A DNA stretch of 64,000 nt from Patescibacteria group bacterium. Lineage in GTDB: Bacteria > Patescibacteriota > Patescibacteriia > UBA2591 > UBA6264. Position 1 is the stretch's first letter; each line of letters begins with the position of its first letter. The notes beneath the pieces are model-generated. The model saw only the letters and a list, made by a program, of their open reading frames with translations. It did not search any database and had not been told where the DNA came from. The stretch spans positions 5,250 to 69,249 of the forward strand of contig JAQTOB010000004.1 in NCBI GenBank assembly GCA_028713575.1, read 5' to 3'. This document shows positions 4,367 to 58,930 of the stretch, one piece after another. A program made the position numbers and the translations under genes.

Positions 4367-4439
4367 GATTTCCTCCTTTTTTGTTTTTTTGTAAAGATCG
4401 AATTTATCTTATCTGTTAATATTAAAGCACATTTTTGCC

Positions 4440-4960
4440 CTTTTGTCAATACCCTGTAAAAATCCACCCATAATAGTACACATCCTGTGCAAGTCCACCC
4501 ATAGTATTACACCTTAGTTTTAACAAACTCATTTACGAGATTATCTACGAGGCGAGACCTCGTAGATCGTAGATTTTGATCATTACATCCTGGGGTCTGA
4601 CCCCATAAACATTCCTTCTAAAACCCTTATCAACAAAGGATTATATGACAAAAATTTCAATTTGGTGTGATTTTGATTAAATTTTTTTATCTACGAGGCG
4701 AGACCTCGTAGGAGGCGTATCTACGAGGCGAGACCTCGTAGATTGTAAATTTTTTATGGGGCTTGGGGTCTGACCCCCTGGGGTCTGGGGTCTGACCCCA
4801 TAAACATTCCTTCTAAAACCCTTATCAACAAAGGATTATATGACAAAAATTTCAATTTGGTGTGATTTTGATTAAATTTTTTTATCTACGAGGTTATCTA
4901 CGAGGCGAGACCTCGTAGATTGTACCTCGTAGATTGTAAATTTTTTAAAGAATGTTAAAA
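4440..4960. repeat. Repeat-rich intergenic region. It holds two copies of the MITE-like element (ggggtctgacccc...tttcaatttggtgtgattttgatt) and four copies of the hairpin tctacgagg-cgaga-cctcgtaga.
   Basis: Direct reading of the sequence. The hairpins are at about 4544-4566, 4689-4711, 4719-4742 and 4898-4920. The element cores begin at 4592 and 4765. Confidence 0.8.
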
Positions 4961-4968
4961 TAAAAAAC

Positions 4969-9587: not shown

Positions 9588-10655
9588 ATGGGAAAAGCAA
9601 AGAACAAAAAAAATTTACTTGTAACATTGGCGGACAAAAATTATGTGGAACCGGCCAAACAGCTTTTTTCCAGTGTTTATTGGAATGCCGGATGGCGGGG
9701 CGATTATATGTTACTTGCTCATGAAATCTCCGAAAAAAAATTAGAGTGGTTTAGGAGAAAAGGAATTTTAATTAAGAAGTGTGAACCCCTCTATCGCGGT
9801 AAGGTTGGGGGGTGGAGGCCCGCAACTCACACAAGTAAGTTTTATCTATTTGCCCCTGAGTTTAAGAAATGGGACAATGTGGTGTATTTAGACGGGGATA
9901 TAATTGTAAGAGGCTCCTTGGACGAACTGACAGAAATTAATGGTTTTGGCGCGACACTTGACTTGTGGAATAGCAAATTGTCCGAACAAATTATAAATGT
10001 TAGGCTTATGAAAGAAAGGAGGGTGGATAAAAAAATTTTTATTAATCTTTCAAACGAGCTTATAAAATATTATGATTTAAAAGAAGATGCATTTAATTCA
10101 GGAGTAATGGCTTTTAGCACAGATATAATAAAAAAGGACACTTTTTCAAAATTATATAATATCTTTAAAAAATACGAAAAAATTGGCGTTGGCGGAGACC
10201 AGTTGATATTTAATATATTCTTTTATAAGAATTGGATAAAATTGTCCCCGCTTTATAATATTTGGCCTATTTTTATGAGGAGCATTTTCAATATTGAAGA
10301 TGAAAAAATTAAAGGAATAATACTGCATTTTGTGGGAATATGGCAAAACGATAAACCATGGATTGTAAATAATTATTTTTATAAAGAATGGACAAATAAT
10401 TTGCAAAGAGCCGAATTGATTAATTTCAAAAAAATCCCGCCTCCTTTAAAAAAATGGACTAAACCGGAAATTGAAAAATATTCTTTTTATTTGAAATCCA
10501 AACGCGTATATCTAAAAAAAATATATTTGAAAACCAAAGAGAACATTGAATTTACATATAAGCTTGCGCTCAGACACATTAGTAGATTTATTGGAATTGC
10601 GGGGTTATTCCTAAAAAAGCATTTTCCAAAATTATATTTTAAATTAAAAAAATGA
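9588..10655 (+). CDS. Nucleotide-diphospho-sugar transferase (GT8-like / capsule-LPS glycosyltransferase-like)
   Basis: GT-A-like N-terminal region with a DxD motif (VVYLDGDIIV). Membership of the glycan cluster supports the call. Confidence 0.45.
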   Translation: MGKAKNKKNLLVTLADKNYVEPAKQLFSSVYWNAGWRGDYMLLAHEISEKKLEWFRRKGILIKKCEPLYRGKVGGWRPATHTSKFYLFAPEFKKWDNVVYLDGDIIVRGSLDELTEINGFGATLDLWNSKLSEQIINVRLMKERRVDKKIFINLSNELIKYYDLKEDAFNSGVMAFSTDIIKKDTFSKLYNIFKKYEKIGVGGDQLIFNIFFYKNWIKLSPLYNIWPIFMRSIFNIEDEKIKGIILHFVGIWQNDKPWIVNNYFYKEWTNNLQRAELINFKKIPPPLKKWTKPEIEKYSFYLKSKRVYLKKIYLKTKENIEFTYKLALRHISRFIGIAGLFLKKHFPKLYFKLKK

Positions 10656-11512
10656 AAAATCCTAAAGTTTCCGTTATTATTCCGGTTTATAATCGGGGAG
10701 AAAAATTAAAGGGATGTTTAAAATCTGTTTTAAATCAGACTTATAAAGATTATGAGGTTATTGTCGTTGATAATAATTCCACGGATAACACCAAGGAAAC
10801 AATAAAAGAATTTCAAAAAAAAGACAAAAGGGTGAGATATTTATTTGAACCGAAAAGGGGCGCGGCGGCCGCCAGATATTTAGGCGAAATAAATTCACAA
10901 GGAGAAATAATTTTAATGACTGATTCTGATTGCATTGTTAAGGAAAATTGGGTGGCGGAAATAATTGAACCCATTGTCAAACGCGGCGCCGTGGCGGTAC
11001 AGGGCGTTAAAAGGGCCGCGATTAAGAATTACTGGACTTTACATATGGAAGAGGACGAGAGAAGGAATACGGCGGGAAGAGTCAAAGATAAAAAAATGGG
11101 TTTGTTGGATACGGCAACCTTTGCGATTAAAAAATCCGTTTTGGAAAAAATCGGCCTTACCAACCCCCGGCTTTCAATCGGTCACGACACTGAACTGGAG
11201 GCCAGATTTAAAATTCAAGGGTATGAGATTTTTTTAAAACAAGTTGAAGTATTGCATTATTATGCGGATAATGCAATAAAATTATTTAAAAAAATGTTTA
11301 TTAGGGGCTATTGGAATGCGAGAATTACAAAAACATATGGAGCTTATAAAAAAATTTTTTTCATTCAAAGTAAAATGGAACATTTGCGTTATTTTATAAG
11401 AGTTGGTCTTGAATTATTATATTTACATAAAAATTTTAAGTATGATTTAGTCGCGGGCGTGGGTTGGAGGATAGGATTAGTTTGCGGTTATATATGGAAA
11501 AAAATAAAATAA
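10652..11512 (+). CDS. Glycosyltransferase family 2
   Basis: The N-terminal VSVIIPVYNRGEKLKGCLKSVLNQTYKDYEVIVVDNNSTD is a classic GT2 signature. Its 4-nt overlap with the upstream gene suggests translational coupling. Confidence 0.8.
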   Translation: MKNPKVSVIIPVYNRGEKLKGCLKSVLNQTYKDYEVIVVDNNSTDNTKETIKEFQKKDKRVRYLFEPKRGAAAARYLGEINSQGEIILMTDSDCIVKENWVAEIIEPIVKRGAVAVQGVKRAAIKNYWTLHMEEDERRNTAGRVKDKKMGLLDTATFAIKKSVLEKIGLTNPRLSIGHDTELEARFKIQGYEIFLKQVEVLHYYADNAIKLFKKMFIRGYWNARITKTYGAYKKIFFIQSKMEHLRYFIRVGLELLYLHKNFKYDLVAGVGWRIGLVCGYIWKKIK

Positions 11513-11678
11513 AAATAAATTTCTAAAAAGTGTATTAGAAAAAAAATATACGACAGGTATAAAATTTTTTGTCGTTTTATTCCTAAATAATTTTTCAATT
11601 TATAAAAAGACGCTCCAGCGAAGCGTTTTTTGGTTTATGAAATTTTGTAGGGAATAATATGTGAAAATAGATAAAGAT

Positions 11679-12407
11679 TTAATGTTGTTTTAGGTATTCT
11701 TCAACAACATCTTCAGGGTTCCCCTGTTTGATAATTTTTCCTTTATTAACCCAGATAACCCTGTCACAATATTTTTTAATTATTGGAAGCCTATGGCTTA
11801 CAAGTAAGGCGCTTGCTCCGTTTTTAATCAATTCTTTCACCTTATTGACGCTTTTATGTTTAAATTCTTCATCGCCCATTTCAAAAACTTCGTCTAAAAT
11901 TAAAATATCGGGATTGCAATGAACGGCAATTGAAAAAATGAGCCTTTGTTTCATTCCGTCTGAAAATTGATAAATTTTAGTATTAACAAAATCTTTCAAA
12001 TCAGAGAATTCAATAATGGAATTAATTTTTTCTTTGATTTCTTTTAGGGACAACCCTAAAAGCAGAGAATATAGATATATATTATCTCTTAATGTTAATC
12101 TTTCCTTTAGGCCGTTGTTTAAATTTATTAGAGAAATTATTTTTCCTTGAGTATTGATTCGGCCTTTTTCTTTATCATATATTCCGGCGATAATTCTAAG
12201 CAATGTGCTTTTACCTGAGCCGTTTTTGCCGATAATTCCGACAATTTCTCCGGCGTTAACATAAAAAGAAATATTGTCTAAAACCTGGATATTTTTTTTT
12301 GTTTCTTTTCCGGAAAAAAGCGAAATAAATCTGGCTAAAATTCCCCGGTTTTTTTCAAAACCGATTTTAAATTTTTTTGACAAATTTTCAACAATTATTC
12401 TTTTCAT
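11679..12407 (-). CDS. ABC transporter ATP-binding protein, polysaccharide/teichoic-acid export type (Wzt/TagH/KpsT-like)
   Basis: Walker A is GIIGKNGSGKSTLL, the signature is FSDGMKQRL and Walker B is ILILDEV. Confidence 0.85.
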   Translation of the reverse strand: MKRIIVENLSKKFKIGFEKNRGILARFISLFSGKETKKNIQVLDNISFYVNAGEIVGIIGKNGSGKSTLLRIIAGIYDKEKGRINTQGKIISLINLNNGLKERLTLRDNIYLYSLLLGLSLKEIKEKINSIIEFSDLKDFVNTKIYQFSDGMKQRLIFSIAVHCNPDILILDEVFEMGDEEFKHKSVNKVKELIKNGASALLVSHRLPIIKKYCDRVIWVNKGKIIKQGNPEDVVEEYLKQH

Positions 12408-13228
12408 TAAATTAGTTCTGCGAATTTATACTTTAATTTATTAAAGACACATAAACCGACGATTAAAAACAGTAAACTGTAAAATATTGCCCCTAAAACC
12501 ATCCAGGTTTCAGGGGATTTTGCGTATATCATTAAATCTCGGGCCATAGTGATAAAATAGTAGATAGGATTTAATAAGTTTAGTTTAAATAACCAGCTTT
12601 GATTTTCAATTGTATAGAAAATGGGCGTTCCAAACCAAATTAAAAAAGAAATGAACAGCCATATATTGAATAGGTCAATAAAATAAACGGTTAGGGCCGC
12701 CAAGATAAGAGAGGCGCCGTAAATAAAAAGGCAAAATAAAAAAAGAATTAAAGGGTAAAAAATAATTCCTTGGGTTGAAACATTAAAAATAAAAAGAAGT
12801 ATAACAAAAAGAATTATTTCAAATATATGCGAAAATAAAGTTTTTAAGGTGAGTGAAGCGACCAGGCATTCGCGGGGGAAGTTTATGGATTTAATAAGCC
12901 AACGGTTTTCGTTTATTACTTGGGTGGATTCTATGGTGGTTTGGCGAAAAAAATTAAACATAATTATGCCTAAGAGCAGGTAAAGCGAATAATGTGGAAT
13001 ATTATTGCTGAATTTATTGGCAAAAACGACCAAAAGGACAAGAAATGTTAAGGTCGGATTGAGCAGATACCAAAAAATTCCTAAATAACTTCCTTCGTTT
13101 CTTAATTTAAATTCAGCCTTAGCTAAGGCAAGACTTTTGTTTAGGGTGTTTTTTAACGTAAAGAAAAATTTTTGGGCCTTGTTCGTCACAAATATAGCGT
13201 TAACAAATTTATTTTTTAAATATGCCAA
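12407..13228 (-). CDS. ABC-2 family permease (Wzm/TagG-like)
   Basis: Six TM helices. It overlaps the ATPase gene by 1 nt, which is the typical Wzm-Wzt arrangement. Confidence 0.7.
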   Translation of the reverse strand: MAYLKNKFVNAIFVTNKAQKFFFTLKNTLNKSLALAKAEFKLRNEGSYLGIFWYLLNPTLTFLVLLVVFANKFSNNIPHYSLYLLLGIIMFNFFRQTTIESTQVINENRWLIKSINFPRECLVASLTLKTLFSHIFEIILFVILLFIFNVSTQGIIFYPLILFLFCLFIYGASLILAALTVYFIDLFNIWLFISFLIWFGTPIFYTIENQSWLFKLNLLNPIYYFITMARDLMIYAKSPETWMVLGAIFYSLLFLIVGLCVFNKLKYKFAELI

Positions 13229-13341
13229 AATAAAAGGACTTTGTCAATTTATTTGTCCAGCTTCCCCTTTACGATTTATTTTGTTATTATATAATATATT
13301 AGTGATAATCAATAATTAATAATCATTAATCAGCCAATTTT

Positions 13342-13920
13342 ATGACGCAAAAAAATACTACTCGGATAATCATTGCCGTGATTATCTTGGTTGTTCTCGG
13401 TTTAATTTTATTAACCGCGCCAAAAACTACGCCAAAACCGGAAACAAATTTAGGAGAAGAGCTGGAAACAGATAAAGAAGCAACTTCAATTGAATTGGAA
13501 AGTTTGGTTCCGGGAGCCAGTCCGGTTTCGGAAAAAGGCGAAGTTTTGACAACCGAAGGCAAAGCGACCGACAACGCGGCCATTCCCGGTTCGCCGGACG
13601 CGCCTAAGCAATCTGCTTCTTTAAAAGAGGAAGAAATTCCAGAAGAAGCAGTTAAAATTTCCGTTTCTACCAACGGCTTTACTCCTAATGAATTTAAAGT
13701 TAAAGCCAAAAGCGCGATTACTCTTTCTCTTACTTCCACAGATATGACCCATGTTTTCAAATTTGATGACCCGGTTCTGCAGGCCATTGCCATCGGTGTG
13801 GGAGGTAAGGAAACCCGAGCTATTACTTTCAATGCGCCTTCAGCTGGCGACTACACTTTTTATTGCGATGTGCCTGGTCATCGTGGTCGTGGCGAAACAG
13901 GCGTGATGCATGTTGAATAA
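13342..13920 (+). CDS. Membrane-anchored cupredoxin-like protein (paralog of 6788-7447)
   Basis: N-terminal TM helix. The C-terminal domain has a His in THVFKF followed by FYCDVPGHRGRGETGVMHVE. It aligns with 6788-7447 over the whole C-terminal domain. Confidence 0.5.
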   Translation: MTQKNTTRIIIAVIILVVLGLILLTAPKTTPKPETNLGEELETDKEATSIELESLVPGASPVSEKGEVLTTEGKATDNAAIPGSPDAPKQSASLKEEEIPEEAVKISVSTNGFTPNEFKVKAKSAITLSLTSTDMTHVFKFDDPVLQAIAIGVGGKETRAITFNAPSAGDYTFYCDVPGHRGRGETGVMHVE

Positions 13921-13933
13921 GTATTATTGTTTT

Positions 13934-13988
13934 GAGAACAAAAATATCCCGGATTAACCGGGATATTTTTGTTCTCAGTAATTTTTTA
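13934..13988 (+). terminator. Intrinsic terminator. A perfect 19-bp stem (gagaacaaaaatatcccgg / ccgggatatttttgttctc) with an attaa loop is followed by a T-run. It lies between convergent genes.
   Basis: Inverted repeat read directly, with tttttt at 13983-13988. Confidence 0.7.
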
Positions 13989-15455
13989 CGGACCAATCAA
14001 ATTATTGGCGATTATCTTATAATCTTGATCATAAATAAATATGCTTAAGGCGATACTTTGACATTGCTTTGGTAAAAGAAGACTATCTTCAGTCGTTTTA
14101 TCAAGACAGATTAACGGCTTTTCATTCACCAAAATATCCCGAGAAACAATAACAATTATTTTTTGATTTTTATATTCTTTTTTATCCCGCAGTGATAATT
14201 GATTGTTTTCTTTAGATACCGAAAGTAGATGATTTCTTAATTGATGATAATGAAAATCAAATGATTGTTGAAAGCCGGAAACGATTTTTTGATTATCAGT
14301 AATAAACGCGCTTTCATCATTATTATAATTGGCTAAAAGGCTCCAATTATTAGTGCCAAAAAGCGCAGTTTTCCCGTCTATAATCAGAACATGATGATGA
14401 AGAAAAGAATTAAAAATTTCTTCGCCAATAGAACCTGGTATTTCATCATTAAAATCAAAAGTTCGCCAAACGTCGTCTAAGATTTCAAGATTGTCTATTT
14501 TTTTTCTCCATTTTTCATAAAGAAGCAAGTTAAAAGCGGAATCAGGTTTCCAAAGATTAAAGTCGTCAGTGATGATTTTAATATTTATTCCTTGTTCTGC
14601 TTTTTGCAAAATAGCTTTAGCGATTTTTCTATCCGTGAGTTGCCAAATCATTATTTCTATGTCTTTTTCCGCTTCCTTGATTAAATCAATGATTTTTTCA
14701 TTAAGAGAATTAGTTTTGAATCCCGGACTCCACCAAAGGTCAAAAAAACAATCGTTAAAATTTATTCTTTTTGCCCAGGGCCGATAGCCGTTTTCCCCCA
14801 GTTTTTTGATGCCGCTTAATCCGTTTTTCAATCTAATAAATTCATGATAATAAGTTTTAATAATTTCTTCTTCATTGGTGGTAAAAAGAAAACTGGGGTC
14901 AAATTGTTCCTGCCAGTCTGTCCAATTAAGGGACTCAACAATTAAATTTTGATTATTTGTCCCCTCATCAATAATTAGAAATTTATGATGCATATAGCCG
15001 AGATCGGTATTAGCGTCTATTCTTTTAATACCCGAGGGCAAGTCGTAAAAAACAAGATTATGTTGTTCTTCTTTTTCTTTGTCAAAAATCATGGTTATCT
15101 TTACGCCCCTTTGTTTTGCCCGATAAAGCTCTTCTTTAAAACCTTCTAAATTAAAGGAATACATGGCCAGATCAATGGTTTTTTTTGCATTTTTAATTTT
15201 TTTTATAATAATTTCAGAAAACAAATTGGTCTTGAATTCATTATTGAAATATATTTCGCCTCTAAAGTCGTTTTTTGATTCAACTTCCTGATGAGAAATG
15301 TATTTTGGCAATTTGAAATTAAATAAATTCCAAGCGGTTATTTTTTTAGAAACAAGAACAAGAAAAAAACAAAGAAAGAAAAAAATAATCAAACCAAGGG
15401 TAATAATTTTAAATTTTTTCAACCCCTTTTTGGAATAGAAAATATTTTTTATCAT
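13986..15455 (-). CDS. Membrane-anchored phospholipase D-family protein with two HKD-type motifs (PLD nuclease / cardiolipin-synthase-like fold)
   Basis: N-terminal TM helix. Motif 1 is MHHKFLIIDEGTNNQNLIVESLNW (HxKxxxxD...N). Motif 2 is LHHHVLIIDGKTALFGTNNWS, a variant HxH(x4)D...GTNN. Confidence 0.6.
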   Translation of the reverse strand: MIKNIFYSKKGLKKFKIITLGLIIFFFLCFFLVLVSKKITAWNLFNFKLPKYISHQEVESKNDFRGEIYFNNEFKTNLFSEIIIKKIKNAKKTIDLAMYSFNLEGFKEELYRAKQRGVKITMIFDKEKEEQHNLVFYDLPSGIKRIDANTDLGYMHHKFLIIDEGTNNQNLIVESLNWTDWQEQFDPSFLFTTNEEEIIKTYYHEFIRLKNGLSGIKKLGENGYRPWAKRINFNDCFFDLWWSPGFKTNSLNEKIIDLIKEAEKDIEIMIWQLTDRKIAKAILQKAEQGINIKIITDDFNLWKPDSAFNLLLYEKWRKKIDNLEILDDVWRTFDFNDEIPGSIGEEIFNSFLHHHVLIIDGKTALFGTNNWSLLANYNNDESAFITDNQKIVSGFQQSFDFHYHQLRNHLLSVSKENNQLSLRDKKEYKNQKIIVIVSRDILVNEKPLICLDKTTEDSLLLPKQCQSIALSIFIYDQDYKIIANNLIGP

Positions 15456-17145
15456 ATTTTAATAAAGAATTATCTTGACCGGAAAGAACGATAAAAATTG
15501 ATTCTTTCAGCTGATTGGTTAAAATTTTGAAGACTTTGTTCGTTATTTCGTTATTTAGGTCAGCATAAATAGCGTCCACGATTATTAACAAAGGCTTTTT
15601 TATCAGGCAATAAGCGGCCTGCAAAGAAAAAAGTTCCGTTAAATTCATTTTCATTGATTGAAAATCATGACCCATGAATTTGCTTAATGACATAATAAAA
15701 TTAAATTCTTTAAAGGGAGAAAGTGTTTGAAATGTTTTTTCAACATCTAGGGGCGTAATGTCTTCTTTATTTTTTCCTGTTAAAATTTCACCGATTTTTT
15801 TTTCCGTTGACAAATCGTTTTTGATAAAATAAGCGGGAAAAGAGGCTTGCTGCCAATGTTTGTAAAAAAATCTTTTACCATTGATTTTTACTATCCAGCT
15901 GGAAATATTGAATTGACCTTGACCGGAAAAAATAAGACCTAACTGATTTTTATTTGGATTTTTCCCAAAAATGAGAATTTTTTCACTTTTTTTGAATTCA
16001 AATTTTAGATGATGCGAATATCCGTCTGATTTTATTAATTTTGTTTTTTTTGCATTAAAGGAAATGGTTTGGAAATTTTTGAAATTGATAAATCGGCGCT
16101 TATTGGTTTTAGATTTAGGAACAGAGAGGATTAGCCCCAGCTTGGTAGGCAATGAATAAAATCCGATTTGTAAACTGGTGTAGAGTAAGCGAGTGAGATA
16201 AAAGATAATGATGCCAGAAAGAAATAGATTGCCAATTTCTATTTGCAGAAAAAAAGAAGGAAAATATATTTGCAAAATATAAAATATTCCGGCCAAAAGA
16301 ATTAAAAGAGCGAAAATTACCCGTGGTCCGAAATTGAGCCAAAGATTTCGGCGGATGCGAAAATAAGTGTCAATTTTTACTAAATCATCAAGTTTTTTCA
16401 AGCTTTTTTCTTCCAAGCGATGGCTTTGAATAAAGGGCAATTCATAAAGGTCGGTTACAATATTTTTGATTATTTCCGAATACAAAGTGGTTTCCTTGGT
16501 AATGTAGTTTTTTGCAATGAAATAGCCAATAACTCCAATGGCGATGTTTATAGGAATGAAGGCAAGAACAATGATTAAAAGTTTTGTGTTATAGAAAAAA
16601 GTGATGGAGATTAGTCCTAAAATATAAAGAATCCAACGCATTGAACCAATAAGGCTTTTTTCAACCCCCATTTGTAGCAAAGGAAGATGATATGATATTT
16701 TGGCAATTAAAGAGGCCTTGTTTTGACTTTTTGTTTTGAAAAAGGGACGATGCAGGAAGATTTTAAACCAACCCCTTCTCAAATCGTTTAATAAATAAAC
16801 AATTAGGGTTTTTTCTATTTTTAAACCAATAAAAGAACAAACAAGATAAATCATTACTCCGGCGGAGAGAATAAAAAAAACGATTGGCATTTTTTTGCGG
16901 ATTAAAAGAGCGCTGAATTGGGAAATAAAACTGTGGCTAAACAAAGACAAAATAACTTCTAAAATAACCAGAAAGAAAATAAGCAAAATCATGATTTTTA
17001 CTTCTTTTTTGTGTTTTTTTATAAAACGCAAAAGGTATTGGAAATGAAAATTTTCCAATTTCAGTTGATGGATGTTTTTTTTAATTTTTTCCCTTTGTTG
17101 ATACAAAGAGATCTGATAGTTTTTTTCTTCCATGATGGACCTCAA
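15409..17145 (-). CDS. ABC-exporter-like membrane protein (N-terminal 6-TM domain plus C-terminal NBD-like domain) with all catalytic motifs degenerate (pseudo-ATPase)
   Basis: The TMD carries an ABC_membrane-like LLNDLRRGWFKIFL region. In the NBD-like part the Walker A position reads ILIFGKNPNKNQL (no GxxGxGKS/T). The signature position reads FSLQAAY instead of LSGGQ. The Walker B position reads LLIIVDAIYADLN, so the catalytic E is replaced by A. Confidence 0.55.
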   Translation of the reverse strand: MRSIMEEKNYQISLYQQREKIKKNIHQLKLENFHFQYLLRFIKKHKKEVKIMILLIFFLVILEVILSLFSHSFISQFSALLIRKKMPIVFFILSAGVMIYLVCSFIGLKIEKTLIVYLLNDLRRGWFKIFLHRPFFKTKSQNKASLIAKISYHLPLLQMGVEKSLIGSMRWILYILGLISITFFYNTKLLIIVLAFIPINIAIGVIGYFIAKNYITKETTLYSEIIKNIVTDLYELPFIQSHRLEEKSLKKLDDLVKIDTYFRIRRNLWLNFGPRVIFALLILLAGIFYILQIYFPSFFLQIEIGNLFLSGIIIFYLTRLLYTSLQIGFYSLPTKLGLILSVPKSKTNKRRFINFKNFQTISFNAKKTKLIKSDGYSHHLKFEFKKSEKILIFGKNPNKNQLGLIFSGQGQFNISSWIVKINGKRFFYKHWQQASFPAYFIKNDLSTEKKIGEILTGKNKEDITPLDVEKTFQTLSPFKEFNFIMSLSKFMGHDFQSMKMNLTELFSLQAAYCLIKKPLLIIVDAIYADLNNEITNKVFKILTNQLKESIFIVLSGQDNSLLKYDKKYFLFQKGVEKI

Positions 17146-18319
17146 GATAATATTTATATAAAGAAGGGATTTTAATATTTTTCAAATCCTTTTTTAGTTT
17201 TTTTTGTAATCGGGGAGAATAAGAACCGTAAAAATATTTAGTAATGATGCGGAAAAAAGTTTCAGACAAATTTTTAATTTGTTGTTCGTCATTAACTAAG
17301 ATTTTTTGGCTGATAATTTGCAATAATTGGTTATTTAAAGAATTCTCTTTTTTATAAAGAAGTTGGGAAAAATGTTTCATTTTATTTTTTGGCTTAAAAG
17401 AAAGAAGTGACGTCCGCCAATAACTTATGGTTTTTTTAACAAATGAGTCCTCTAAACTAATTAAACGGTCATGGAAACAATAGCCTAAAAAATTAAATTT
17501 TTCTTTTCCATTTATCAATCTGGTTTTTTCTTTTTTAATTTCTAATTTTAATTCTTTAAGGTGTTGATATAAATATTTTTCAATTTCTTTAAGTTTTTTT
17601 AGACTTGGGTCAAAGGCGATTAAATCGTCGCCGATGCGACGATAAAGGCAAATTTTTGGCCCCAAGTATTTGTCTAGGTCGTCCAAATAAAGATTAGTAA
17701 AAAGGGCGATTAAAGGCACGCCTTGAATAACGCCGATTTTTGGCTGATAAATTTTTTTATCCTTATAAACCGCATTTTTAATGAAAAGTTTAAGGATTTC
17801 CATCAGCGGTTTTTCAGAAATAGTTTTTTCAAGTTTGGTTATTAAAATATCTTGGTCAATGTAATCGGAATAATTTTTAAGGTCGGCAATCAGAATAAAA
17901 TCTTTATCATAATAACGTTGATAGCGTCGCGCCACGCTACGACTGGCGTAAAAACTGCTATGAGAAGAACGATAAGAGAATAGATAAGGCGAATAAAGAT
18001 TTTCAAAAATTGGCTCTAAAACCCGATAAATAGCTTGAGCTTTAATTCGGGCTCTAACTGAATAAACATATATGTCTCTTAAAGAACCGTCTTTTTTTGG
18101 AATGTAATGGCAAATAGCTGGCGCCAAAGGAGTAATTTCAATTAATTCTTTCCTCGCTTTTTGGCAGAATTCTTCTGCCTGAGATTTAACGTCGTTTAGG
18201 CCAAGTCCTTCAATGCCGACGTATCTTGCCGTTAAGGATTTTTGGTCAAATTTTTTAGCCAAATCCAAATAGGCCTGCCGAATGTTTTTAATGTCAATTA
18301 TTTTTTCAAAAAGTTTCAT
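17081..18319 (-). CDS. Reverse transcriptase (group II intron / retron-like RT motifs 0-7 plus a roughly 130-aa C-terminal extension) with an unusual IGDD motif C
   Basis: Motif 0 is RYVGIEGLG and motif 1 is IPKKDGSLRDI. Motif 2 is SVRARIKAQAIYRVLEPIFE and motif 3 is FSYRSSHSSFYA. Motif 4 is ILIADLKNYSDYID and motif 5 is GVIQGVPLIALFTNLYLDDLD. Motif C is LYRRIGDDLIAF and motif 7 is LKLEIKKEKTRLIN...FNFLGYCF. The gene overlaps the downstream gene by 65 nt. Confidence 0.8.
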   Translation of the reverse strand: MKLFEKIIDIKNIRQAYLDLAKKFDQKSLTARYVGIEGLGLNDVKSQAEEFCQKARKELIEITPLAPAICHYIPKKDGSLRDIYVYSVRARIKAQAIYRVLEPIFENLYSPYLFSYRSSHSSFYASRSVARRYQRYYDKDFILIADLKNYSDYIDQDILITKLEKTISEKPLMEILKLFIKNAVYKDKKIYQPKIGVIQGVPLIALFTNLYLDDLDKYLGPKICLYRRIGDDLIAFDPSLKKLKEIEKYLYQHLKELKLEIKKEKTRLINGKEKFNFLGYCFHDRLISLEDSFVKKTISYWRTSLLSFKPKNKMKHFSQLLYKKENSLNNQLLQIISQKILVNDEQQIKNLSETFFRIITKYFYGSYSPRLQKKLKKDLKNIKIPSLYKYYLEVHHGRKKLSDLFVSTKGKN

Positions 18320-18330
18320 TTTTATATCAA

Positions 18331-18369
18331 GCCCCGTATTTCAAAAACAAAATACGGGGCTGTTTTTTT
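18331..18369 (+). terminator. Strong hairpin (gccccgtattt / aaatacggggc, 11-bp stem) followed by tgttttttt on the + strand. It lies 12 nt upstream of the minus-strand RT start codon.
   Basis: Read directly from the sequence. It would terminate + strand (antisense-to-RT) transcripts. Alternatively it is part of a structured RT leader RNA. Confidence 0.55.
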
Positions 18370-18727
18370 ACCATAACATGGCAATGCCCAACGGCGAGCC
18401 ATTAATCAAGTCAAATTGAGATAACAGTGCTAAATAGGTTTTTTTTATTTTTTTTATTATTTCACTTGCTGTTTTGGTATTAGGCGGTTTTATAACAACA
18501 AGCCGGATAATTTTTAATACCCCTTATTTAAAGAGTGGTTATGGTTTTAATTTAATTGAAATTTTTATTTGAACAGCAATTATTGGAAATTTCCATTCAA
18601 CTACATTTTAACACGGATTTTAAAAAATTGATATGCTTGTCTTGTGGAAAAGTTTTTAAATTAATTGAAGTTTTTAATTGTTATTTTCCCCTTTTTATAC
18701 TATAATAAAAGTATTATTATTGGTTTT

Positions 18728-21700
18728 ATGTCTTTGTTTTCAAAATTTAATTTTAAAAATTTTTTGATTGTTACGGGGTCTTTTTTTCTGCTGTTTATCC
18801 TTATTTTAACCGGCATTTTTTTATTTAACCGAAAAATGAATATTCAGGCGGCGGAAACACACAAGCTCCGCGGTTGGGGTTGGTCGGAAAACGTCGGTTG
18901 GATTTCTATGAATTGTTTTAATGATTTTGATAATGATGGCGTTTTTGAAAATTGTTGTCCCGGCGGTACAGAATGTACTAGTGAAAATACCCCTTATACC
19001 CAATGTTGCCCTTATGATTTGAGCGCTGATTATGGGGTCAATTATGATACGATTTCAAAGGAATTAAGCGGTTATGCTTGGGCGGAAAATATCGGTTGGA
19101 TTTGTTTTGGCAAAACCTGCGATGGCGCGACGCCTGACGGCAATAACGCTTGGGCCTGCGTCGGCAACGGGTCTTGTCTCAATGGTGTTTGTTCCTGTGT
19201 CGGCGACCAAGGGGAAGATTTTCTGGATACCGACAAGGCGTGTACCGAATCCAATCATTTAAAAGCTCACTGGAAAATGAATGATATAGTTAATGGGAAA
19301 ATTATTGACGAGACTACGGTTAATGGAGGAACCTTAATGCCCGCGGTTGCTCCGCCCGCTTTAACCAAAGGAAAGTTTGAAAATGCTTTGAAATTTGATG
19401 GGATAGAGGATTATGTTGAAATGGCGGACAGTCCCAATCTCAGTATGACCGGCAATTTAACCATTGAGGCATGGGTAAAAAGAAATGAAGTCGGCGGAGA
19501 ACAAACTATTGTTGCTAAATGGGATGAATCTCAAAACAAAAAAAGCTATCGGCTTTGGTTTAGCAGTGACAACCGATTAAATTTTACTGTTTCTAATAAT
19601 ACTAATCTCGCCACGGCGCAGCAAAAAAACGGCATTTGCGTGGGCAGTAATAGAAAGCAGTGTTATAACGGTCTGGAAACAAATGAACAAAGTTGTTCTT
19701 TTCATGCTGATTGTCCAATTGGTTATTATTGTCACGAAAAACTTTGCGACAATGATAGCAATTGTGACCAGGATTTACACGAAATCTGCCAGAACGCGCC
19801 CATTACTGACATTAAAAAATGGCATCATGTCGTGGGCAAGTATGTGGCTGATATTCCCGGCACTGATGTTGATGAAAAAGCCCTGTTGCTTTTTATTGAT
19901 GGTTCGCCGGCTTTCGTTAACATTACTGGAACTATTCCCAATGCTTTAATTGATGACAGCCAGAATTTTTATATTGGCGCAAAAAAGGGAACCACTGTCA
20001 TGAATACTTATTTTAAGGGCAATATTGACAATGTGTCTGTTTGGTCTTGTCAAAATTTGGGCAAAATTTTGGGTCGCCACAAAAAAGAGATTTGGAATGA
20101 CGCCAAAATGGAAGTGGACGGTTGGGCAAAAATAGTTTCTTTGAATGACGGCGGGTGGTTAAAATTACAAGGACTTACTCGCGATAGCCGAGTTTGGGGC
20201 AGTTATTTAAACAATTATAATACTTTTTACACTTTTAGCGGTTATATGGCTAATCGTTATGTTAAAGAACCTACAAATAGCTCCGGTTTAATGGCTTATT
20301 GGAAAATGAATGAACCATTTTGGAATGATAGCATTAATGAGGTGATTGATTCTTCAATTAATAATAATCATGGCACCGCAAAAAATGGGGCCAAAATTAT
20401 CAATAACGGCGCTTTACATAATGCCGGAGATTTTGACGGCGAAAATGATTGTTTGTTGATACCGGATTCTCCCACTTTGGACATTGCCAATAGCATCACT
20501 TTAAGCATCTGGATTTTAAATGAAGGCCCGGGAAGCGGAAATGAAAGTTCGTCAAAGGGAATGATTATATCTAAAAATTATGCCGGCAATAATGGCGTTT
20601 ATAATTTGCATTTAAATTACTATACCTCCGGCAATAAAATAGAATTTGAAGTCTATGATTTAAACGATACCCGGCATTATTTGGAATCAACCACGGTGGT
20701 TGAGGATAAAAAATGGTATCACGTTGTCGCTATCTACGATTATGGTTCGGGCAAAGCGAAAATTTATATTAATGGAGAAAAAGAAGAAAACGAAGGGACA
20801 TGGGGCGGTTATAACTTAAAAACAACATCATTAGCCACCAGTATCGGCTGTTCAACTTCCGCGGACAACACTCCTTTAAAGATGTTTTTTAGCGGTTTGA
20901 TTGACGATGTGATGATTTATAATAGAGTATTGAGCGAAACCGAAATTAAAGCGATTTATAATTCATCTATTCCTTTTTGTGCCGGCTGGGAAGACCACGA
21001 ACATGAATATAGCGGTCCGCCCGCGCCTTTGGATTTTGATAATTTAAGCCTGGACAATACTTTGCTTTGTGGGCAAATGTCATTGCAATGGGAGTCCTCT
21101 GATTGGGCGGAAAGCTATACTTATGAGCGTTGCGACAATGTTTCAGAGACAGAATGTGCCAGTTGTTCTTATGTGGAAAAGAGCGTTTTGGACGATTCTT
21201 GCGAATTAACGGGTTGTTATTTGGTTGATAATGATTTAATTCCAAACACTGGTTATTGTTACAAGGTTCAGGCACACAATGAAACCGGTTCTACTTATAA
21301 CTCCGAGGGGCCGGTTTGGAAAAGCACTTTGTTTTGCGCCCCGACTTTTGGTGTGATTGACAATTCGGTTTGCGGACAACTTTCTCTTCAATGGGAATCA
21401 ATTGAAGAGGCCGACGGCAATAATATTTATCGTTCTTTAACAAACAATGGTTGTTATGATGTTTACAGCCCCACTTGCGAATTAATTGGTCACGTGGCAG
21501 AGGGTATGAATTATTATGTTAATAACGATGAGCTTAAAGATTTAATCGCTCATTGGAAAATGAATGAATCGTCTTGGAGTGGCGCGACTGATGAAGTCAA
21601 TGATTCTTCTGGTAATGGAAATCACGGGGTTGCCAGCACCGGAACCACGACTACTGGCAATGGAAAATTTGATTATGCCGGCGTTTTTGACGGCAACGAT

Positions 21701-22450
21701 TATTTAACTATCGGACACCATGAACAATTTGATTTGGGCGAAGATGATAAAATGACTATTGAAGCTTGGGTTTATTTAAATGCCGCGCCGACTAATTATC
21801 AGATGATTTTAAGCAAGGGCTATAATCCGGGCTATGAATTTAGAATCAATACTGGTCGTTATGCGCAATTTTTAAATGTGGCAACCGGCTATAGTTCTTA
21901 TGTTCTTACTTCCACTAATGCTTTGTCTTTAAATGAATGGTATCATTTGGCCGTGACTAAAAGTAATATGACTGGTGAAACAAAAATTTATATCAATGGC
22001 GTTTTGGATAAAACCGGATTTTTAGATACTTTTGATTATAGTAATGAAAATGAAATAAGAATCGGCCGTGATGCTGATGACGGATGCGCCAACGGCAATG
22101 CCTATTTTAAGGGTTATTTGGACAATTTGGCCGTTTATAACGCGATTAAAGACGAAGAACAAATGAGAATTGATTACGAAGCAGGCAATTGCGGTGCTGA
22201 TAATTGCCGAATAAGTGAAGTTTGCAATCTTTGTCATGTTCAGGGCGTTGACGACGGAATTTGCGGCAGAATATCAAGCGATGCCAGTGTTTGTTGTTGT
22301 TCCTTTACTGATTCGCGCATTGTTCCTTTTGTTGATTATCACTATGTTTTTACTGTCACCAGCGGACAAGGCGAATCAACACCCGGTCCGGAACCGCCCT
22401 TAACCAGTCAAACGATTTGTTTTCCGCCAACAGAAGAAGAAGAAAATTAA
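18728..22450 (+). CDS. Large membrane-anchored surface protein with multiple LamG-like (concanavalin A-like lectin/glucanase) domains and FN3-like segments
   Basis: An N-terminal TM helix follows MSLFSKF. The block AHWKMNE...NGNHG...A..DG.DDY... ...EAWV... recurs three times and is LamG_3-like. The ORF track starts at 18665, but the later ATG at 18728 immediately precedes the TM helix. Confidence 0.6.
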   Translation: MSLFSKFNFKNFLIVTGSFFLLFILILTGIFLFNRKMNIQAAETHKLRGWGWSENVGWISMNCFNDFDNDGVFENCCPGGTECTSENTPYTQCCPYDLSADYGVNYDTISKELSGYAWAENIGWICFGKTCDGATPDGNNAWACVGNGSCLNGVCSCVGDQGEDFLDTDKACTESNHLKAHWKMNDIVNGKIIDETTVNGGTLMPAVAPPALTKGKFENALKFDGIEDYVEMADSPNLSMTGNLTIEAWVKRNEVGGEQTIVAKWDESQNKKSYRLWFSSDNRLNFTVSNNTNLATAQQKNGICVGSNRKQCYNGLETNEQSCSFHADCPIGYYCHEKLCDNDSNCDQDLHEICQNAPITDIKKWHHVVGKYVADIPGTDVDEKALLLFIDGSPAFVNITGTIPNALIDDSQNFYIGAKKGTTVMNTYFKGNIDNVSVWSCQNLGKILGRHKKEIWNDAKMEVDGWAKIVSLNDGGWLKLQGLTRDSRVWGSYLNNYNTFYTFSGYMANRYVKEPTNSSGLMAYWKMNEPFWNDSINEVIDSSINNNHGTAKNGAKIINNGALHNAGDFDGENDCLLIPDSPTLDIANSITLSIWILNEGPGSGNESSSKGMIISKNYAGNNGVYNLHLNYYTSGNKIEFEVYDLNDTRHYLESTTVVEDKKWYHVVAIYDYGSGKAKIYINGEKEENEGTWGGYNLKTTSLATSIGCSTSADNTPLKMFFSGLIDDVMIYNRVLSETEIKAIYNSSIPFCAGWEDHEHEYSGPPAPLDFDNLSLDNTLLCGQMSLQWESSDWAESYTYERCDNVSETECASCSYVEKSVLDDSCELTGCYLVDNDLIPNTGYCYKVQAHNETGSTYNSEGPVWKSTLFCAPTFGVIDNSVCGQLSLQWESIEEADGNNIYRSLTNNGCYDVYSPTCELIGHVAEGMNYYVNNDELKDLIAHWKMNESSWSGATDEVNDSSGNGNHGVASTGTTTTGNGKFDYAGVFDGNDYLTIGHHEQFDLGEDDKMTIEAWVYLNAAPTNYQMILSKGYNPGYEFRINTGRYAQFLNVATGYSSYVLTSTNALSLNEWYHLAVTKSNMTGETKIYINGVLDKTGFLDTFDYSNENEIRIGRDADDGCANGNAYFKGYLDNLAVYNAIKDEEQMRIDYEAGNCGADNCRISEVCNLCHVQGVDDGICGRISSDASVCCCSFTDSRIVPFVDYHYVFTVTSGQGESTPGPEPPLTSQTICFPPTEEEEN

Positions 22451-22680
22451 TAGAAAAATAAAGGAATTGATGATGCTCCTGATGAGGTGGTTCCGATGAC
22501 ACTTAAAGATACTTAGGAGGATACTTGGGAGCAAGGCTCCGAAGTAAGTCTCATAAGTACGGAAAAAACAAGACCGGAGATAGAAGTCACACGCAATAGC
22601 CATGGATTAAATGGATTAAAAAAGTTTTATAAAGGGTTCTATATTCTATATTATATTATATTTTTCATTTTTCAGATTTT

Positions 22681-22710
22681 CTTTTTGGCAGGTGCTCACC
22701 TGCCAAAAAG
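22681..22710. repeat. REP-like palindrome ctttttggcaggtg-ct-cacctgccaaaaag immediately upstream of the Y1 transposase gene
   Basis: Perfect 14-bp inverted repeat. Half-site echoes (gacctgccaaaaaa, acccgccaaaaac) follow. Confidence 0.75.
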
Positions 22711-22752
22711 AAAATGACCTGCCAAAAAAGACCAAACCCGCCAAAAACCAAA

Positions 22753-23412
22753 ATGTCTCTTAAAAATTCACTTAAAATTTACATTAAAGATGGAATCTAT
22801 CACATCTATAACCGGGGCATAGAAAAAAGAAACATCTTTTTAGATGAACAGGATTATAAAGTATTTTTATATTATTTGAAAAGTTATTTAACACCAGTTG
22901 GTCAACAAGAAAAACCGCCCTATGGTATTGATAGAAATGTTTTAGATTTCACCCTTTATAAACAAATCCGGCTTTTTTGTTTTTGTTTAATGCCAAATCA
23001 TTTTCATTTAATGATTCAGCAATTAACTGAAAGGGCGATTATAGAATTTATGAAGCGTTTAACTAACGCCTATGTAAGATATTTTAATGAAAAGTATGAT
23101 CGCAAAAGTATAGGTCCGCTTTTCCAGGGCAAATATAAAGCTGTGTTAATAAAAAAAGAACAACAATTCTTATATTTGCCGTATTATATCCATTTTCACA
23201 ATCCGGAAGGATTATATAGAAACAAGAGAGATGCTGAGTTAATCAAAAAAATACAAAATTATCCTTGGTCAAGTTATGCCGATTATTTAGGTAAACGTGA
23301 CACCAAATGGATTTATAAAAAAGGAATAATGGAGCAATTTATGGAAACAGAAGAAATAAAGCCGGAGACGGAAACTACGCGCAAAATTTTAGGTTCAACG
23401 GTTATAGATTAA
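22753..23412 (+). CDS. Y1 HUH transposase (IS200/IS605 TnpA-like; REP-associated tyrosine transposase-like)
   Basis: YHIYNRG is present. The HUH motif is CLMPNHFHLM. The candidate catalytic Tyr lies in LFQGKYKAVLI. The gene is flanked on both sides by related palindromes. Confidence 0.65.
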   Translation: MSLKNSLKIYIKDGIYHIYNRGIEKRNIFLDEQDYKVFLYYLKSYLTPVGQQEKPPYGIDRNVLDFTLYKQIRLFCFCLMPNHFHLMIQQLTERAIIEFMKRLTNAYVRYFNEKYDRKSIGPLFQGKYKAVLIKKEQQFLYLPYYIHFHNPEGLYRNKRDAELIKKIQNYPWSSYADYLGKRDTKWIYKKGIMEQFMETEEIKPETETTRKILGSTVID

Positions 23413-23425
23413 AGGGAATGTGTAT

Positions 23426-23447
23426 TTGGAAGGTGAGCACCTTCCAA
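23426..23447. repeat. REP-like palindrome ttggaaggtg-ag-caccttccaa immediately downstream of the Y1 transposase
   Basis: Perfect 10-bp inverted repeat of the same ttggNaggtg family as 22681-22710. Confidence 0.75.
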
Positions 23448-23478
23448 GAAATATCTTCCAAGAAATAAGAAATAATTT

Positions 23479-25515: not shown

Positions 25516-25689
25516 CGACACTATTGCTACAAATTAACATACTAATGCTACGAATACGAGAGAAGATATTATTTATCCAAATTCGTCTTATAAATTAGTT
25601 GGCATATTTTTTAATGTTTATAGAAATATGAAATTTGCATTAATCCTCAGCATTCGCATGCTGTTCGCATATAATTCGCATCGCTTTAT

Positions 25690-25995
25690 ATGATCTCAAA
25701 AGAAGAAGTCCAACATATCGCCAAATTAGTCCGCCTGCGTCTAAGTGAGGCGGAAATAAAAAAATACCAGAAGCAACTGGGGGAAATTTTAGATTATGTT
25801 AGCCAATTGAAAAAAATTTCCACAAAAAACATTATGCCCTTTTCTTTGTTTGGATTAAAAAACATTTTTCGTTTAGATAAACCAAAAGAAAAGAATCAAG
25901 AACAGACAAGAAAATTGGTCCAATCTGCGCCGGCGCAAAAAGAGGGGATGATTAAAACAAAAGGAATTCTTAACATTAAAGCATTAAAGCATTAA
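25690..25995 (+). CDS. gatC: Glu-tRNA(Gln)/Asp-tRNA(Asn) amidotransferase subunit C
   Basis: MISKEEVQHIAKLVRLRLSEAEIKKYQKQLGEILDYVSQL is typical of GatC. It lies upstream of gatA. Confidence 0.8.
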   Translation: MISKEEVQHIAKLVRLRLSEAEIKKYQKQLGEILDYVSQLKKISTKNIMPFSLFGLKNIFRLDKPKEKNQEQTRKLVQSAPAQKEGMIKTKGILNIKALKH

Positions 25996-26232
25996 AGTAC
26001 ACAATAAGTAATTGATTTTCCAGGCCCCGTTATTTTACATTACATTTTGAGGCTGCCGTCCTTTTTTGAAAGGACGGGGTCCGGCCCATTTGTAGATGGC
26101 CTGCGGTTTGAGTTTTGTATTCTGAATTTTTTAATGGAGCAGGCATTTTGACCATGAAAGAAAAAAAATAATTTTAGATTTAAAAAGTAAGAATATTTTT
26201 TATAAAAAGAATTTACAGCATTTACATTATTT

Positions 26233-58928: not shown

Positions 58929-58930
58929 AT

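Follow-up and report, generated by a model that had tools for sequence, protein, structure and literature searches.

A Patescibacterial reverse transcriptase family with a [V/I]GDD motif C, encoded between a conserved structured RNA and two membrane-protein genes

The stretch of DNA considered here, called the window throughout, covers 64,000 nucleotides of a Patescibacteria group bacterium (assembly GCA_028713575.1, contig JAQTOB010000004.1, positions 5,250 to 69,249 of the forward strand). On its minus strand, it carries a reverse transcriptase (RT) gene whose catalytic motif C reads IGDD. The encoded protein is a genuine RT that is probably catalytically active, as judged from its conserved residues. 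It belongs to a distinct small family of the ultra-small bacteria of the Candidate Phyla Radiation (CPR), which is apparently undescribed and whose sequence places its likely descent among group II intron-like or class 2 ‘UG’ RTs. The gene is part of a module with four fixed parts: a pseudoknotted RNA of ~200 nt, the RT, an ATP-binding cassette (ABC) exporter-like protein and a membrane-anchored protein with tandem phospholipase D (PLD) domains. We tentatively read this module as an RNA-RT-effector system, similar to defence-associated reverse transcriptases (DRTs) and retrons, in which the sugar pocket of the polymerase has been remodelled.

Motif C, family limits and nucleotide pocket of the reverse transcriptase

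The RT gene and its catalytic motifs lie as follows.

17081..18319, minus strand: RT gene, 412 aa, ATG start; fingers, palm, thumb and C-terminal region; group II intron-like
17864..17884, minus strand: motif A (RT3), D146-L-K-N-Y-S151-D152; DLKNYSD aligned gap-free to DLEKFFD of GsI-IIC
17693..17725, minus strand: motif B (RT4), Q199-G-V-P-L-I-A-L-F-T-N209; QGxxxSP in group II RTs
17624..17635, minus strand: motif C (RT5), I229-G230-D231-D232; equivalent of Y-A-D-D in alignments to 6ar1 and 7kft

The first-pass annotation, made from the letters of the window, had reported an RT with the sequence RRIGDDLIAF in the open reading frame (ORF) 17081-18319 and had taken IGDD for its motif C. The ORF is exactly as claimed, on the minus strand and with 412 codons for amino acids; RRIGDDLIAF spans residues 227-236 and IGDD residues 229-232, and the codons ATC GGC GAC GAT are read directly from the sequence at window 17635-17624. 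The protein matches the Pfam model RVT_1 with 69 bits, against a cutoff of 29.6. In HMMER alignments, R-I-G-D-D falls without a gap on the R-Y-A-D-D of the GsI-IIC group II RT, for which a structure has been solved, and the R-F-A-D-D of Cas6-RT-Cas1 gives the identical gap-free register. An overlooked YxDD is ruled out: alignments to three solved RTs put IGDD on YADD or FADD without a gap, and the HMMER alignment of the whole ORF reveals no alternative YxDD elsewhere in the protein. IGDD is therefore the true motif C. The annotation had further stated that the aromatic residue ahead of the aspartates is replaced by Gly, and here it was off by one position. Relative to the YADD of GsI-IIC, the Tyr is replaced by Ile (by Val in most relatives) and the Ala by Gly, i.e., the Gly occupies the ‘x’ position.

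The same motif recurs throughout the relatives of the window RT. All 120 of the best homologues carry xGDD (VGDD in 105, IGDD in 12, CGDD in 2 and AGDD in 1), and outside the family xGDD is sporadic, with a few YGDD or FGDD. Across 62 species-level loci, composed of 61 GTDB representatives and the window, G230, D231 and D232 are invariant, and position 229 is V in 55, I in 4 and L in 3. The presence of xGDD in all 120 homologues and the invariance of the Gly and both Asp in the 62 loci indicate that the motif results neither from chance nor from a sequencing error. Published surveys of prokaryotic RT groups give YADD, FADD, YIDD, YVDD, Y(R/V)DD and Y(V/M)DD, and [V/I]GDD is not among these motifs (PMC4244168).

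The fold is that of a group II-type enzyme. An AlphaFold2 model of the window RT, obtained from a 38-sequence alignment, has a predicted local distance difference test score (pLDDT) of 92 and a predicted template modelling score (pTM) of 0.85. Its best Foldseek match is the GsI-IIC RT (6ar1), with a template modelling score (TM) of 0.75 over the full length (414 columns), followed by DRT9 (second best, TM up to 0.74) and then by G2L4, group II ribonucleoprotein (RNP) RTs and the RT of a diversity-generating retroelement (DGR). Both the Foldseek alignment to 6ar1 and HMMER find the complete order of motifs from RT0 to RT7 together with the thumb/X fold. Searched against the PDB, the family profile retrieves RTs only, i.e., a group II RT at 131 bits, retron RTs at 27-30 bits and, weakly, G2L4 (E = 1e-10), apart from one match labelled only ‘Polymerase’ (7sr6; 17.9 bits, E = 0.01).

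That the protein might represent a diverged clade had also been proposed, and the family proves to be sharply delimited, with xGDD as its hallmark. An exhaustive phmmer search over 1.84 billion cluster representatives returned 50 proteins at E <= 1e-30, and the family amounts to ~50 clusters at 50% identity, nearly all from Patescibacteria. Its members, including fragments, score at least 128 bits, while generic RTs score at most 122 bits. Motif C reads R[V/C/L/M/I]GDD and motif A Y[S/T] within the family, compared with R[Y/F]ADD and FFD or YFD in the outgroup. The window RT reaches 146.4 bits with TIGR04416, the NCBIfam model for group II RT/maturases, and thus stays under the equivalog cutoff of 300. 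The best PADLOC models are those of class 2 UG RTs, namely UG26 with 119 bits (398-position model), followed by UG4, UG17, Drt9 and UG27; over 38 family members, the best E-value obtained with the UG26 model is 1.3e-39. No member-level model for the RT family or for its RNA is present in Pfam, NCBIfam, PADLOC or Rfam. In the open-access literature, we found no [V/I]GDD RT, no RT-ABC-PLD operon, no Falkowbacteria RT and no RT-linked RNA in Parcubacteria or Patescibacteria.

Several features liken this family to G2L4, which is also free-standing, lacks intron RNA and shows a hallmark change inside YxDD; the YIDD of G2L4 alters the activity of that enzyme. The window RT fits the generic G2L definition (a group II-like RT without intron RNA) but not the G2L4-specific YIDD, in place of which it has IGDD; G2L4 is further characterised by an RT3a insertion, and lacks the fixed partner RNA and the ABC-like/PLD operon found here. 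A DGR is ruled out, since no template repeat/variable repeat (TR/VR)-like repeat is found in window 10000-26000 and the RT4 sequence IQGVPLIALF lacks the SQ of the (I/V/L)GxxxSQ motif. A phage origin was rejected as well, with a single relative among 2.9 million viral contigs. In five metagenome-assembled genomes (MAGs), the whole RNA-RT-ABC-PLD module is present twice or three times, in divergent copies and often with different RT/RNA subtypes (L033, L041 and L054 in one MAG; L012 and L022; L032 and L036; L009 and L040; L035 and L050), which suggests an accessory system.

The changes in motif C are accompanied by changes elsewhere in the nucleotide pocket. Since DLKNYSD aligns without a gap to D138-L-E-K-F-F-D of GsI-IIC, S151 corresponds to F143. 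This Phe (F150 in G2L4; equivalent to Y115 of HIV-1) packs on the sugar of the incoming dNTP, and in YxDD the x residue stacks on a sugar while the Tyr hydroxyl touches the base of the bound nucleic-acid substrate (bioRxiv 10.1101/2025.01.14.632616). Position 151 is S in 45 of the 62 loci, T in 10, A in 3, C in 2, G in 1 and F in 1, i.e., Ser/Thr in 55. In motif B, G200, P202 and N209 are invariant and Q199 is retained in 40 loci. Taken together, these alignments give a sugar pocket that looks widened and more polar. The residues of catalysis are all kept. No variation is seen at D146, D231 and D232, at the triphosphate-binding K75 and R81, at K265 of motif D or in the LGY primer grip of RT7, and the enzyme therefore looks active. 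Because the proteins are only 35-60% identical, invariance of the catalytic residues also points to purifying selection on catalysis. Five family members (P0023, P0026, P0042, P0062 and P0078) exceed the gathering score of the Pfam model RdRP_1 for RNA-dependent RNA polymerases (RdRPs), with 24.4-28.5 vs 23.9 bits, over 80-170 residues from motif B/C to E, and match RVT_1 too. The window RT itself gives no match to RdRP_1 (PF00680) at E <= 1 and does not reach the threshold of 23.9 bits.

The structured RNA, the membrane partners and their surroundings

A conserved structured RNA precedes the RT gene on the same strand. In the window, its elements are the following.

18329..18545, minus strand: conserved structured RNA (leader or non-coding RNA, ncRNA), upstream of RT
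18538-18545 paired with 18371-18378, minus strand: helix P1
about 18519-18536, minus strand: hairpin P2
18515-18520 paired with 18477-18482, minus strand: pseudoknot
18456-18511, minus strand: long hairpin P3
18379-18402, minus strand: hairpin P4, tip CCGUUGGG
18329-18362, minus strand: 14-bp hairpin that buries the sole G-rich Shine-Dalgarno-like stretch ahead of the ATG

The RNA is ~200 nt long and pseudoknotted. In these compact genomes, the spacer 5′ of the RT gene is typically ~190-450 nt, compared with mostly 50-120 nt after the PLD gene; all upstream regions align, and conserved blocks lie behind a TATAAT-like box in all loci. Two alignments were used, A4 with 23 Falkowbacteria-type RNAs and A6 with 15 window-type RNAs, including that of the window (448 columns). 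In the architecture of A4, derived from RNAalifold and inspection by hand, helix P1 closes the structure over a long range; P2 is a small hairpin and P3 a long one, CCUCNUUGGAUUUAAU is a conserved single strand, and P4 is a further hairpin. The apical loop of P3 pairs with the strand 5′ of P3 and so creates a pseudoknot. In this alignment, 91.9% of the cells pair and 33 of 42 pairs show a double compensatory change, pseudoknot included. The covariation score is 0.555, compared with 0.11-0.19 when the partners are slid by 1-3 columns, and only 35-46% of the cells pair in these slid controls. In A6, 87.9% of the cells pair (slid controls 35-46%) and a compensatory change is seen in 30 of 31 pairs. 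The minimum free energy fold of the window RNA recovers P1, P2, P3 and P4 and leaves the pseudoknot partners unpaired (z = -4.58). Helix ‘c’ of P3 has no single register in MAFFT alignments, and is present in 23 of the 23 per-sequence folds of the Falkowbacteria type.

When searched against Rfam 15, the upstream RNA gave no match at the gathering score or at E <= 1, and only chance-level matches at E <= 10. A covariance model, R1, was built from the 23 Falkowbacteria-type RNAs and searched in 0.75 Mb of CPR sequence. In many loci that were not used for training, and in the single viral contig, its matches precede the operon on the RT strand. All significant plus-strand matches (E <= 1e-4, 0.75 Mb) lie upstream of this operon, the other matches being weaker minus-strand echoes of identical sites. 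R1 does not reach the window-type subtype, and its only match in the window is at chance level (58920-59095, E = 0.42); for this reason, the RNA of the window was established through A6, the pair counts and its own fold. The subtype of the RNA tracks the subclade of the RT.

The two subtypes differ in how they cover the start of the RT gene. In the Falkowbacteria type, the 3′ strand of P1 is GGGGGUGAU, lies ~9 nt before the ATG and is the only Shine-Dalgarno-like sequence there, so that folding of P1 hides the ribosome-binding site (RBS) of the RT. In the window type, a separate strong hairpin after P1 (18329-18362) buries the G-rich stretch ahead of the ATG. Its stem, 18330-18361, was also tried as a terminator. 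Terminator calls were obtained on the plus strand only, antisense to the RT, and the RT strand has no U-run; we read this hairpin as RBS-sequestering.

The protein partners emerged from the clustering of all ORFs of the 62 loci. Their window copies are:

15409..17145, minus strand: ABC-exporter-like membrane protein, 574-578 aa, with a degenerate ATPase domain; gene start overlapping the RT gene at its 3′ end
13986..15455, minus strand: membrane-anchored tandem PLD protein (Nuc/Zucchini/NucT type), 489 aa; overlaps the ABC-like gene

An ABC-like protein of ~570 aa follows the RT in 61 of the 62 loci, on the same strand and with overlapping or abutting genes, and a PLD protein of 390-500 aa comes next in 59. 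The loci that lack the ABC-like or PLD gene are all contig ends, and the flanks of the triad differ from locus to locus. Against the PDB, the profile of the ABC-like protein matches MsbA, TM288 and PCAT1 (type IV fold) across both the membrane and nucleotide-binding domains. Despite this two-domain match, the protein lacks the set of motifs that defines an ABC exporter (Walker A, LSGGQ and Walker B Asp-Glu). Walker A is retained in 39 of 56 members, though not in the window copy, none of the 56 has the LSGGQ signature, and the Walker B Asp is followed by Asn in 48 and by Glu in none. By these sequence criteria, the protein appears to have lost the residues needed for ATP hydrolysis. The window copy of the PLD protein matches PLDc_2 with 123 bits, and its best solved relatives are the nuclease-type PLDs MitoPLD/Zucchini, NucT and Nuc. 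In all 57 full-length members, the first HKD motif is canonical, the second reads HxHxxxxD, with a His replacing the phosphate-binding Lys, and a single transmembrane helix is present at the N-terminus.

Of the 14 loci with a protein of ~196 aa that lacks a Pfam or PADLOC match (cluster c3), 12 encode it directly after the PLD protein (L006, L009-L013, L015, L017, L018, L022, L024 and L061), and the operon of that subclade may include it as a fourth member. Genes for cupredoxin-like proteins (c6) and for a LamG (laminin G) protein often come after c3; the window has a cupredoxin-like gene at 13342-13920 (plus strand) and no c3.

The outgroup proteins closest to the family, P0164 and P0208, reach 157-167 bits with the UG26 model and belong to a non-CPR clade of 11 clusters. 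In this sister clade, motif C is [Y/F]GDD in 12 of 12 proteins, motif B reads P[T/A/S]GS, with loss of the motif B Gln, and the gate residue is T in 8, F in 3 and V in 1. At all five loci examined, the RT gene adjoins a complete ABC exporter gene that is convergently transcribed and has an intact ABC_tran domain, in flanks that are otherwise unrelated. The 3′ ends of the two genes overlap by 30-160 nt at four of the five loci, and at the fifth, L068, a pseudouridine synthase gene lies between them.

L063:6001-9235, sister RT and ABC exporter locus
L065:6001-9202, sister RT and ABC exporter locus
L066:5001-8181, sister RT and ABC exporter locus
L067:13-3297, sister RT and ABC exporter locus
L068:699-4995, sister RT and ABC exporter locus

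The 265-660 nt upstream of the sister RTs are conserved and GC-rich, with a long-range closing stem predicted from four sequences only. Both clades thus have the Gly of motif C, a small residue at the gate, a structured region 5′ of the RT and an ABC exporter as neighbour, while only the CPR clade shows the replacement of Tyr by Val/Ile and the PLD gene.

Beyond the triad, prepilin-like genes (cluster c4) adjoin the operon in 14 loci. In the window, a gene at 18665-22450 (plus strand), divergent from the RNA and RT, encodes a 1261-aa protein with a hydrophobic N-terminus and four Laminin_G_3 (LamG) domains. It contains internal DNA repeats (20287-20373 and 21541-21627, 74% identity), and similar LamG giants flank the operon in 11 loci. 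A direct repeat of 37 nt with 81% identity is found at window 18535-18571 and 18644-18680 (plus strand). The first copy extends over the 5′ end of the RNA, which lies on the other strand, and the second over the start of the LamG gene; the repeat is AT-rich and may be due to chance. An IS200-like Y1 transposase ORF (Y1_Tnp, 34.5 bits) at 22714-23412 (plus strand) sits between the LamG gene and a gene for an NAD-dependent DNA ligase (23479-25515).

Possible functions of the RNA-RT module

An RNA-RT-effector module is the reading that we favour, tentatively, because, of the known systems, several of the class 2 UG/DRT type come closest in architecture. They comprise DRT2/UG2, DRT9/UG28, DRT10/UG17, UG27 and, above all, UG26; they provide the best PADLOC matches, and DRT9 ranks second structurally. 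In such systems, an upstream ncRNA with a basal stem is bound and copied by the RT (PMC9226505; bioRxiv 10.64898/2026.04.29.721553). DRT10 adds a membrane effector, and the ncRNA subtypes of UG17/DRT10 track the RT subtypes (bioRxiv 10.64898/2026.04.29.721553). The likeness to the module described here extends to the order of the parts, i.e., an upstream structured RNA, then the RT, then in some cases a membrane effector, as well as to the basal closing stem and the match between RNA and RT subtypes. The differences concern the scores, which are far under member level, the CPR hosts, the lack of an identified template repeat and the flanks, which are not defence islands. ABC-exporter-like and PLD effectors are unreported for any UG group, although UG26 sometimes occurs with a YcjD/Vsr nuclease (PMC9226505). 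Retrons share a structured RNA immediately 5′ of the RT on the same strand, a long-range closing helix reminiscent of a1/a2 and operonic effectors. However, the RT is group II-like here and retron RTs match at 27-30 bits only; the window RT shows no NAxxH or VTG, the motifs of retron RTs, and neither an msr/msd organisation nor a branching G was identified in the RNA.

In the favoured model, the RT would bind its own upstream RNA, as group II RTs do at domain IVa (DIVa) of their introns and the RTs of DRT2, DRT9 and DRT10 at their ncRNAs. Binding would stabilise P1 in the Falkowbacteria type, or the hairpin that follows it in the window type, and the resulting occlusion of the RBS would allow autoregulation of the RT. 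Group II intron proteins shut off their own translation by binding DIVa, which holds the RBS. The RT would also copy a short stretch of the upstream RNA into a specialised polynucleotide. The widened and more polar sugar pocket might relax sugar selection or fidelity, and synthesis of this product would tolerate, or even need, the rebuilt pocket. The product, or the state of the RNP, would then control or feed the two membrane partners. The likely setting would be an accessory, defence-like or nucleic-acid-handling module.

A number of observations weigh against this model. Occlusion of the RBS by P1 is a hallmark of a cis-regulator rather than of a template, and in several related loci a terminator-like hairpin with a U-run lies between the RNA and the ATG on the RT strand. 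Two complete RNA copies stand in tandem 5′ of the RT in three loci (L028:5509-5707 and 5812-6003; L012:914-1194 and 1220-1511; L061:5383-5660 and 5687-5989). At L044, the RNA (3795-3987) is parted from the RT (start 6001) by two prepilin-like genes (4070-5992), which carry the prepilin N-terminal methylation motif. Neither a template region nor a priming site was identified in the RNA. As for the proteins, the highest UG score, that of UG26, remains below member level, the PLD protein matches only the DrmC models of PADLOC, moderately to weakly (best 63-66 bits), and the ABC-like protein has no PADLOC match. The flanks hold prepilins, LamG giants, a T2SSE ATPase, an extracytoplasmic function (ECF) sigma factor, a tRNA synthetase and NusB, with no known defence genes; with pilins, LamG proteins, a sigma factor and housekeeping genes as recurrent neighbours, no defence-island enrichment is seen. 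The case for the sugar pocket is made by sequence alignment and by analogy with HIV-1 Y115, MMLV F155 and GsI-IIC F143, and a few family members keep Phe at the gate.

Some of these observations would be explained if the operon served nucleic-acid scavenging or uptake under a riboswitch-like leader that senses a metabolite, e.g., a nucleotide, which is possible although we consider it unlikely. The RNA would shut the operon off by means of P1 over the RBS or of a terminator. The extracytoplasmic NucT/Nuc-like PLD would cut environmental DNA or RNA, the ABC-like protein would be the conduit, and the RT would process the imported material. For CPR bacteria, which do not make nucleotides de novo, such an operon would be a good fit. 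P1 does contain the only Shine-Dalgarno-like sequence of the RT, a single RNA core is combined with different expression platforms (RBS occlusion, or hairpin and U-run), the tandem copies in L012, L028 and L061 are consistent with a riboswitch, and at L044 pilin genes follow the RNA ahead of the RT. For the uptake function speak the NucT and Nuc relatives of the PLD protein and its N-terminal membrane anchor (57/57), the recurrence of prepilin-like genes, LamG surface giants and the T2SSE ATPase beside the operon, and the near absence of the operon from viral contigs (1 match). However, the RNA has few invariant nucleotides and its subtypes co-diversify with the RT clades, which fits a protein partner better than a small-molecule pocket, and the significant plus-strand R1 matches in 0.75 Mb are all upstream of this one operon. 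The distribution is patchy for a scavenging function, with 61 species representatives, ~50 clusters and up to 3 divergent copies per MAG. In the sister clade, the upstream structure goes with the RT alone, the ABC gene being convergent. Finally, scavenging has no obvious need for a polymerase.

The chemistry of the enzyme is a separate question, which fits either model of the module. The first-pass annotation had linked the unusual motif C to unusual substrate use, and one part of this proposal gains some ground from the alignments: Ser/Thr at the gate in 55 of the 62 loci, loss of the motif B Gln in the sister clade and the five RdRP_1 matches would be consistent with it. In its strong form, the enzyme would polymerise ribonucleotides, or mixed or modified nucleotides, and would be an RT-derived RNA polymerase or a non-discriminating polymerase; on the present alignments we regard this as rather improbable. 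Four pocket positions change together: Ser/Thr replaces the gate Phe in 55/62, Gly fills position x in 100%, Val/Ile replaces Tyr, and the motif B Gln is less strictly kept and gives way to Thr/Ser/Ala in the sister clade. In RdRPs, DD is preceded by Gly and the Gly of motif B by Ser/Thr. Small substitutions at the retroviral gate residue (HIV-1 Y115, MMLV F155V) permit rNTP incorporation. The likeness to viral RdRPs, whose canonical motifs are summarised in PMC10542131, includes an h-G-D-D-h-h motif C, a small polar residue at the sugar gate and the five members above the RdRP_1 gathering score. On the other hand, sequence and fold are those of an RT, the family profile matches RTs only (group II RT, 131 bits), RdRP_1 does not match the window protein at E <= 1, and the gene is chromosomal and cellular. 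Motif A lacks the second Asp at +5, which reads the 2′-OH in RdRPs, and has D/N/E at +6, as in group II RTs. Moreover, the conserved Y150 beside the gate could assume the gate role, and Phe occupies the gate in some members.

A still broader proposal treats the CPR [V/I]GDD and the [Y/F]GDD proteins as one lineage, whose palm would now accept ribonucleotides or 2′-substituted nucleotides and would copy or extend the partner RNA. The product, a templated nucleic-acid polymer, would be passed to the co-evolving ABC-type protein and to the extracytoplasmic PLD, acting as phosphodiesterase or transferase, for export, surface attachment or processing. These bacteria would then possess a cellular, RT-derived RdRP-like activity coupled to membrane export. 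We hold this proposal to be quite improbable.

The other part of the substrate proposal, protein-primed and untemplated synthesis as in abortive infection (Abi) RTs, does not agree with the data and is very improbable. It could draw on the unusual motif C and on the precedent of AbiK, AbiA and Abi-P2, whose active-site surroundings are non-canonical (Y(R/V)DD). Yet these enzymes have no RT0, RT2a or RT7 and a different C-terminal region (PMC4244168), whereas the window RT aligns to group II RTs from RT0 to RT7 and through the thumb, with a FLGY RT7 motif and a group II-type C-terminal region, and no Abi model is found among the best 25 of 30 PADLOC matches. The conserved partner RNA argues for templated synthesis, and a group II-type fold coupled to a structured RNA is the pattern of the templated, ncRNA-dependent class 2 UG/DRT enzymes.

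Hardly any credence can be given to the idea of a group II intron that is mobile or survives as a decaying remnant, in which motif C has drifted and the RT persists as an RNA-binding maturase or an inactive protein, even though group II intron RT/maturases provide the nearest solved structures as well as the top NCBIfam model, the likeness to GsI-IIC (6AR1) covers the full-length fold (TM 0.75) and the motif order from RT0 to RT7 with the thumb, and an RNA carrying the RBS of its own RT recalls the DIVa site. Indeed, a mobile intron is ruled out by the lack of intron RNA domains (no Rfam group II domain at E <= 1 on either side of the RT in window 14000-22000, and none in 11 related loci), by the overlap of the RT 3′ end with the gene that follows, so that domains V and VI would have no space, and by the TIGR04416 score (146 vs 300 bits). 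The [V/I]GDD motif C and the Ser/Thr in place of the sugar-packing Phe set the family apart from group II RTs, and invariant catalytic residues across proteins 35-60% identical argue against decay.

Implications for CPR bacteria and for reverse transcriptases

Almost nothing but DGR RTs has been described in CPR/Patescibacteria (PMC8632793). The module described here would represent a fourth kind of partner set among RNA-guided bacterial RT modules, comprising an ABC-exporter-like protein, a membrane PLD and a new RNA. No precedent for a coupling between an RT and membrane export was found in the open-access literature, and the repetition of the link between RT and ABC exporter in the sister clade outside CPR suggests an old functional coupling of this RT lineage with membrane export.

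RNA-coupled, domesticated RT modules are already known as a kind, and there is a minority chance that the family offers categorically new chemistry. Sugar selection, fidelity and primer handling depend, in every well-studied RT, on the residues that differ here: the two positions ahead of DD in motif C, the sugar-packing aromatic of motif A and the Gln of motif B. A natural family under purifying selection, in which all of these residues have changed together, therefore provides a ready-made test of their roles, as well as a candidate source of polymerases with an unusual substrate range. If the RdRP-like reading were true, the family would bear on how RTs and RdRPs are related in evolution.

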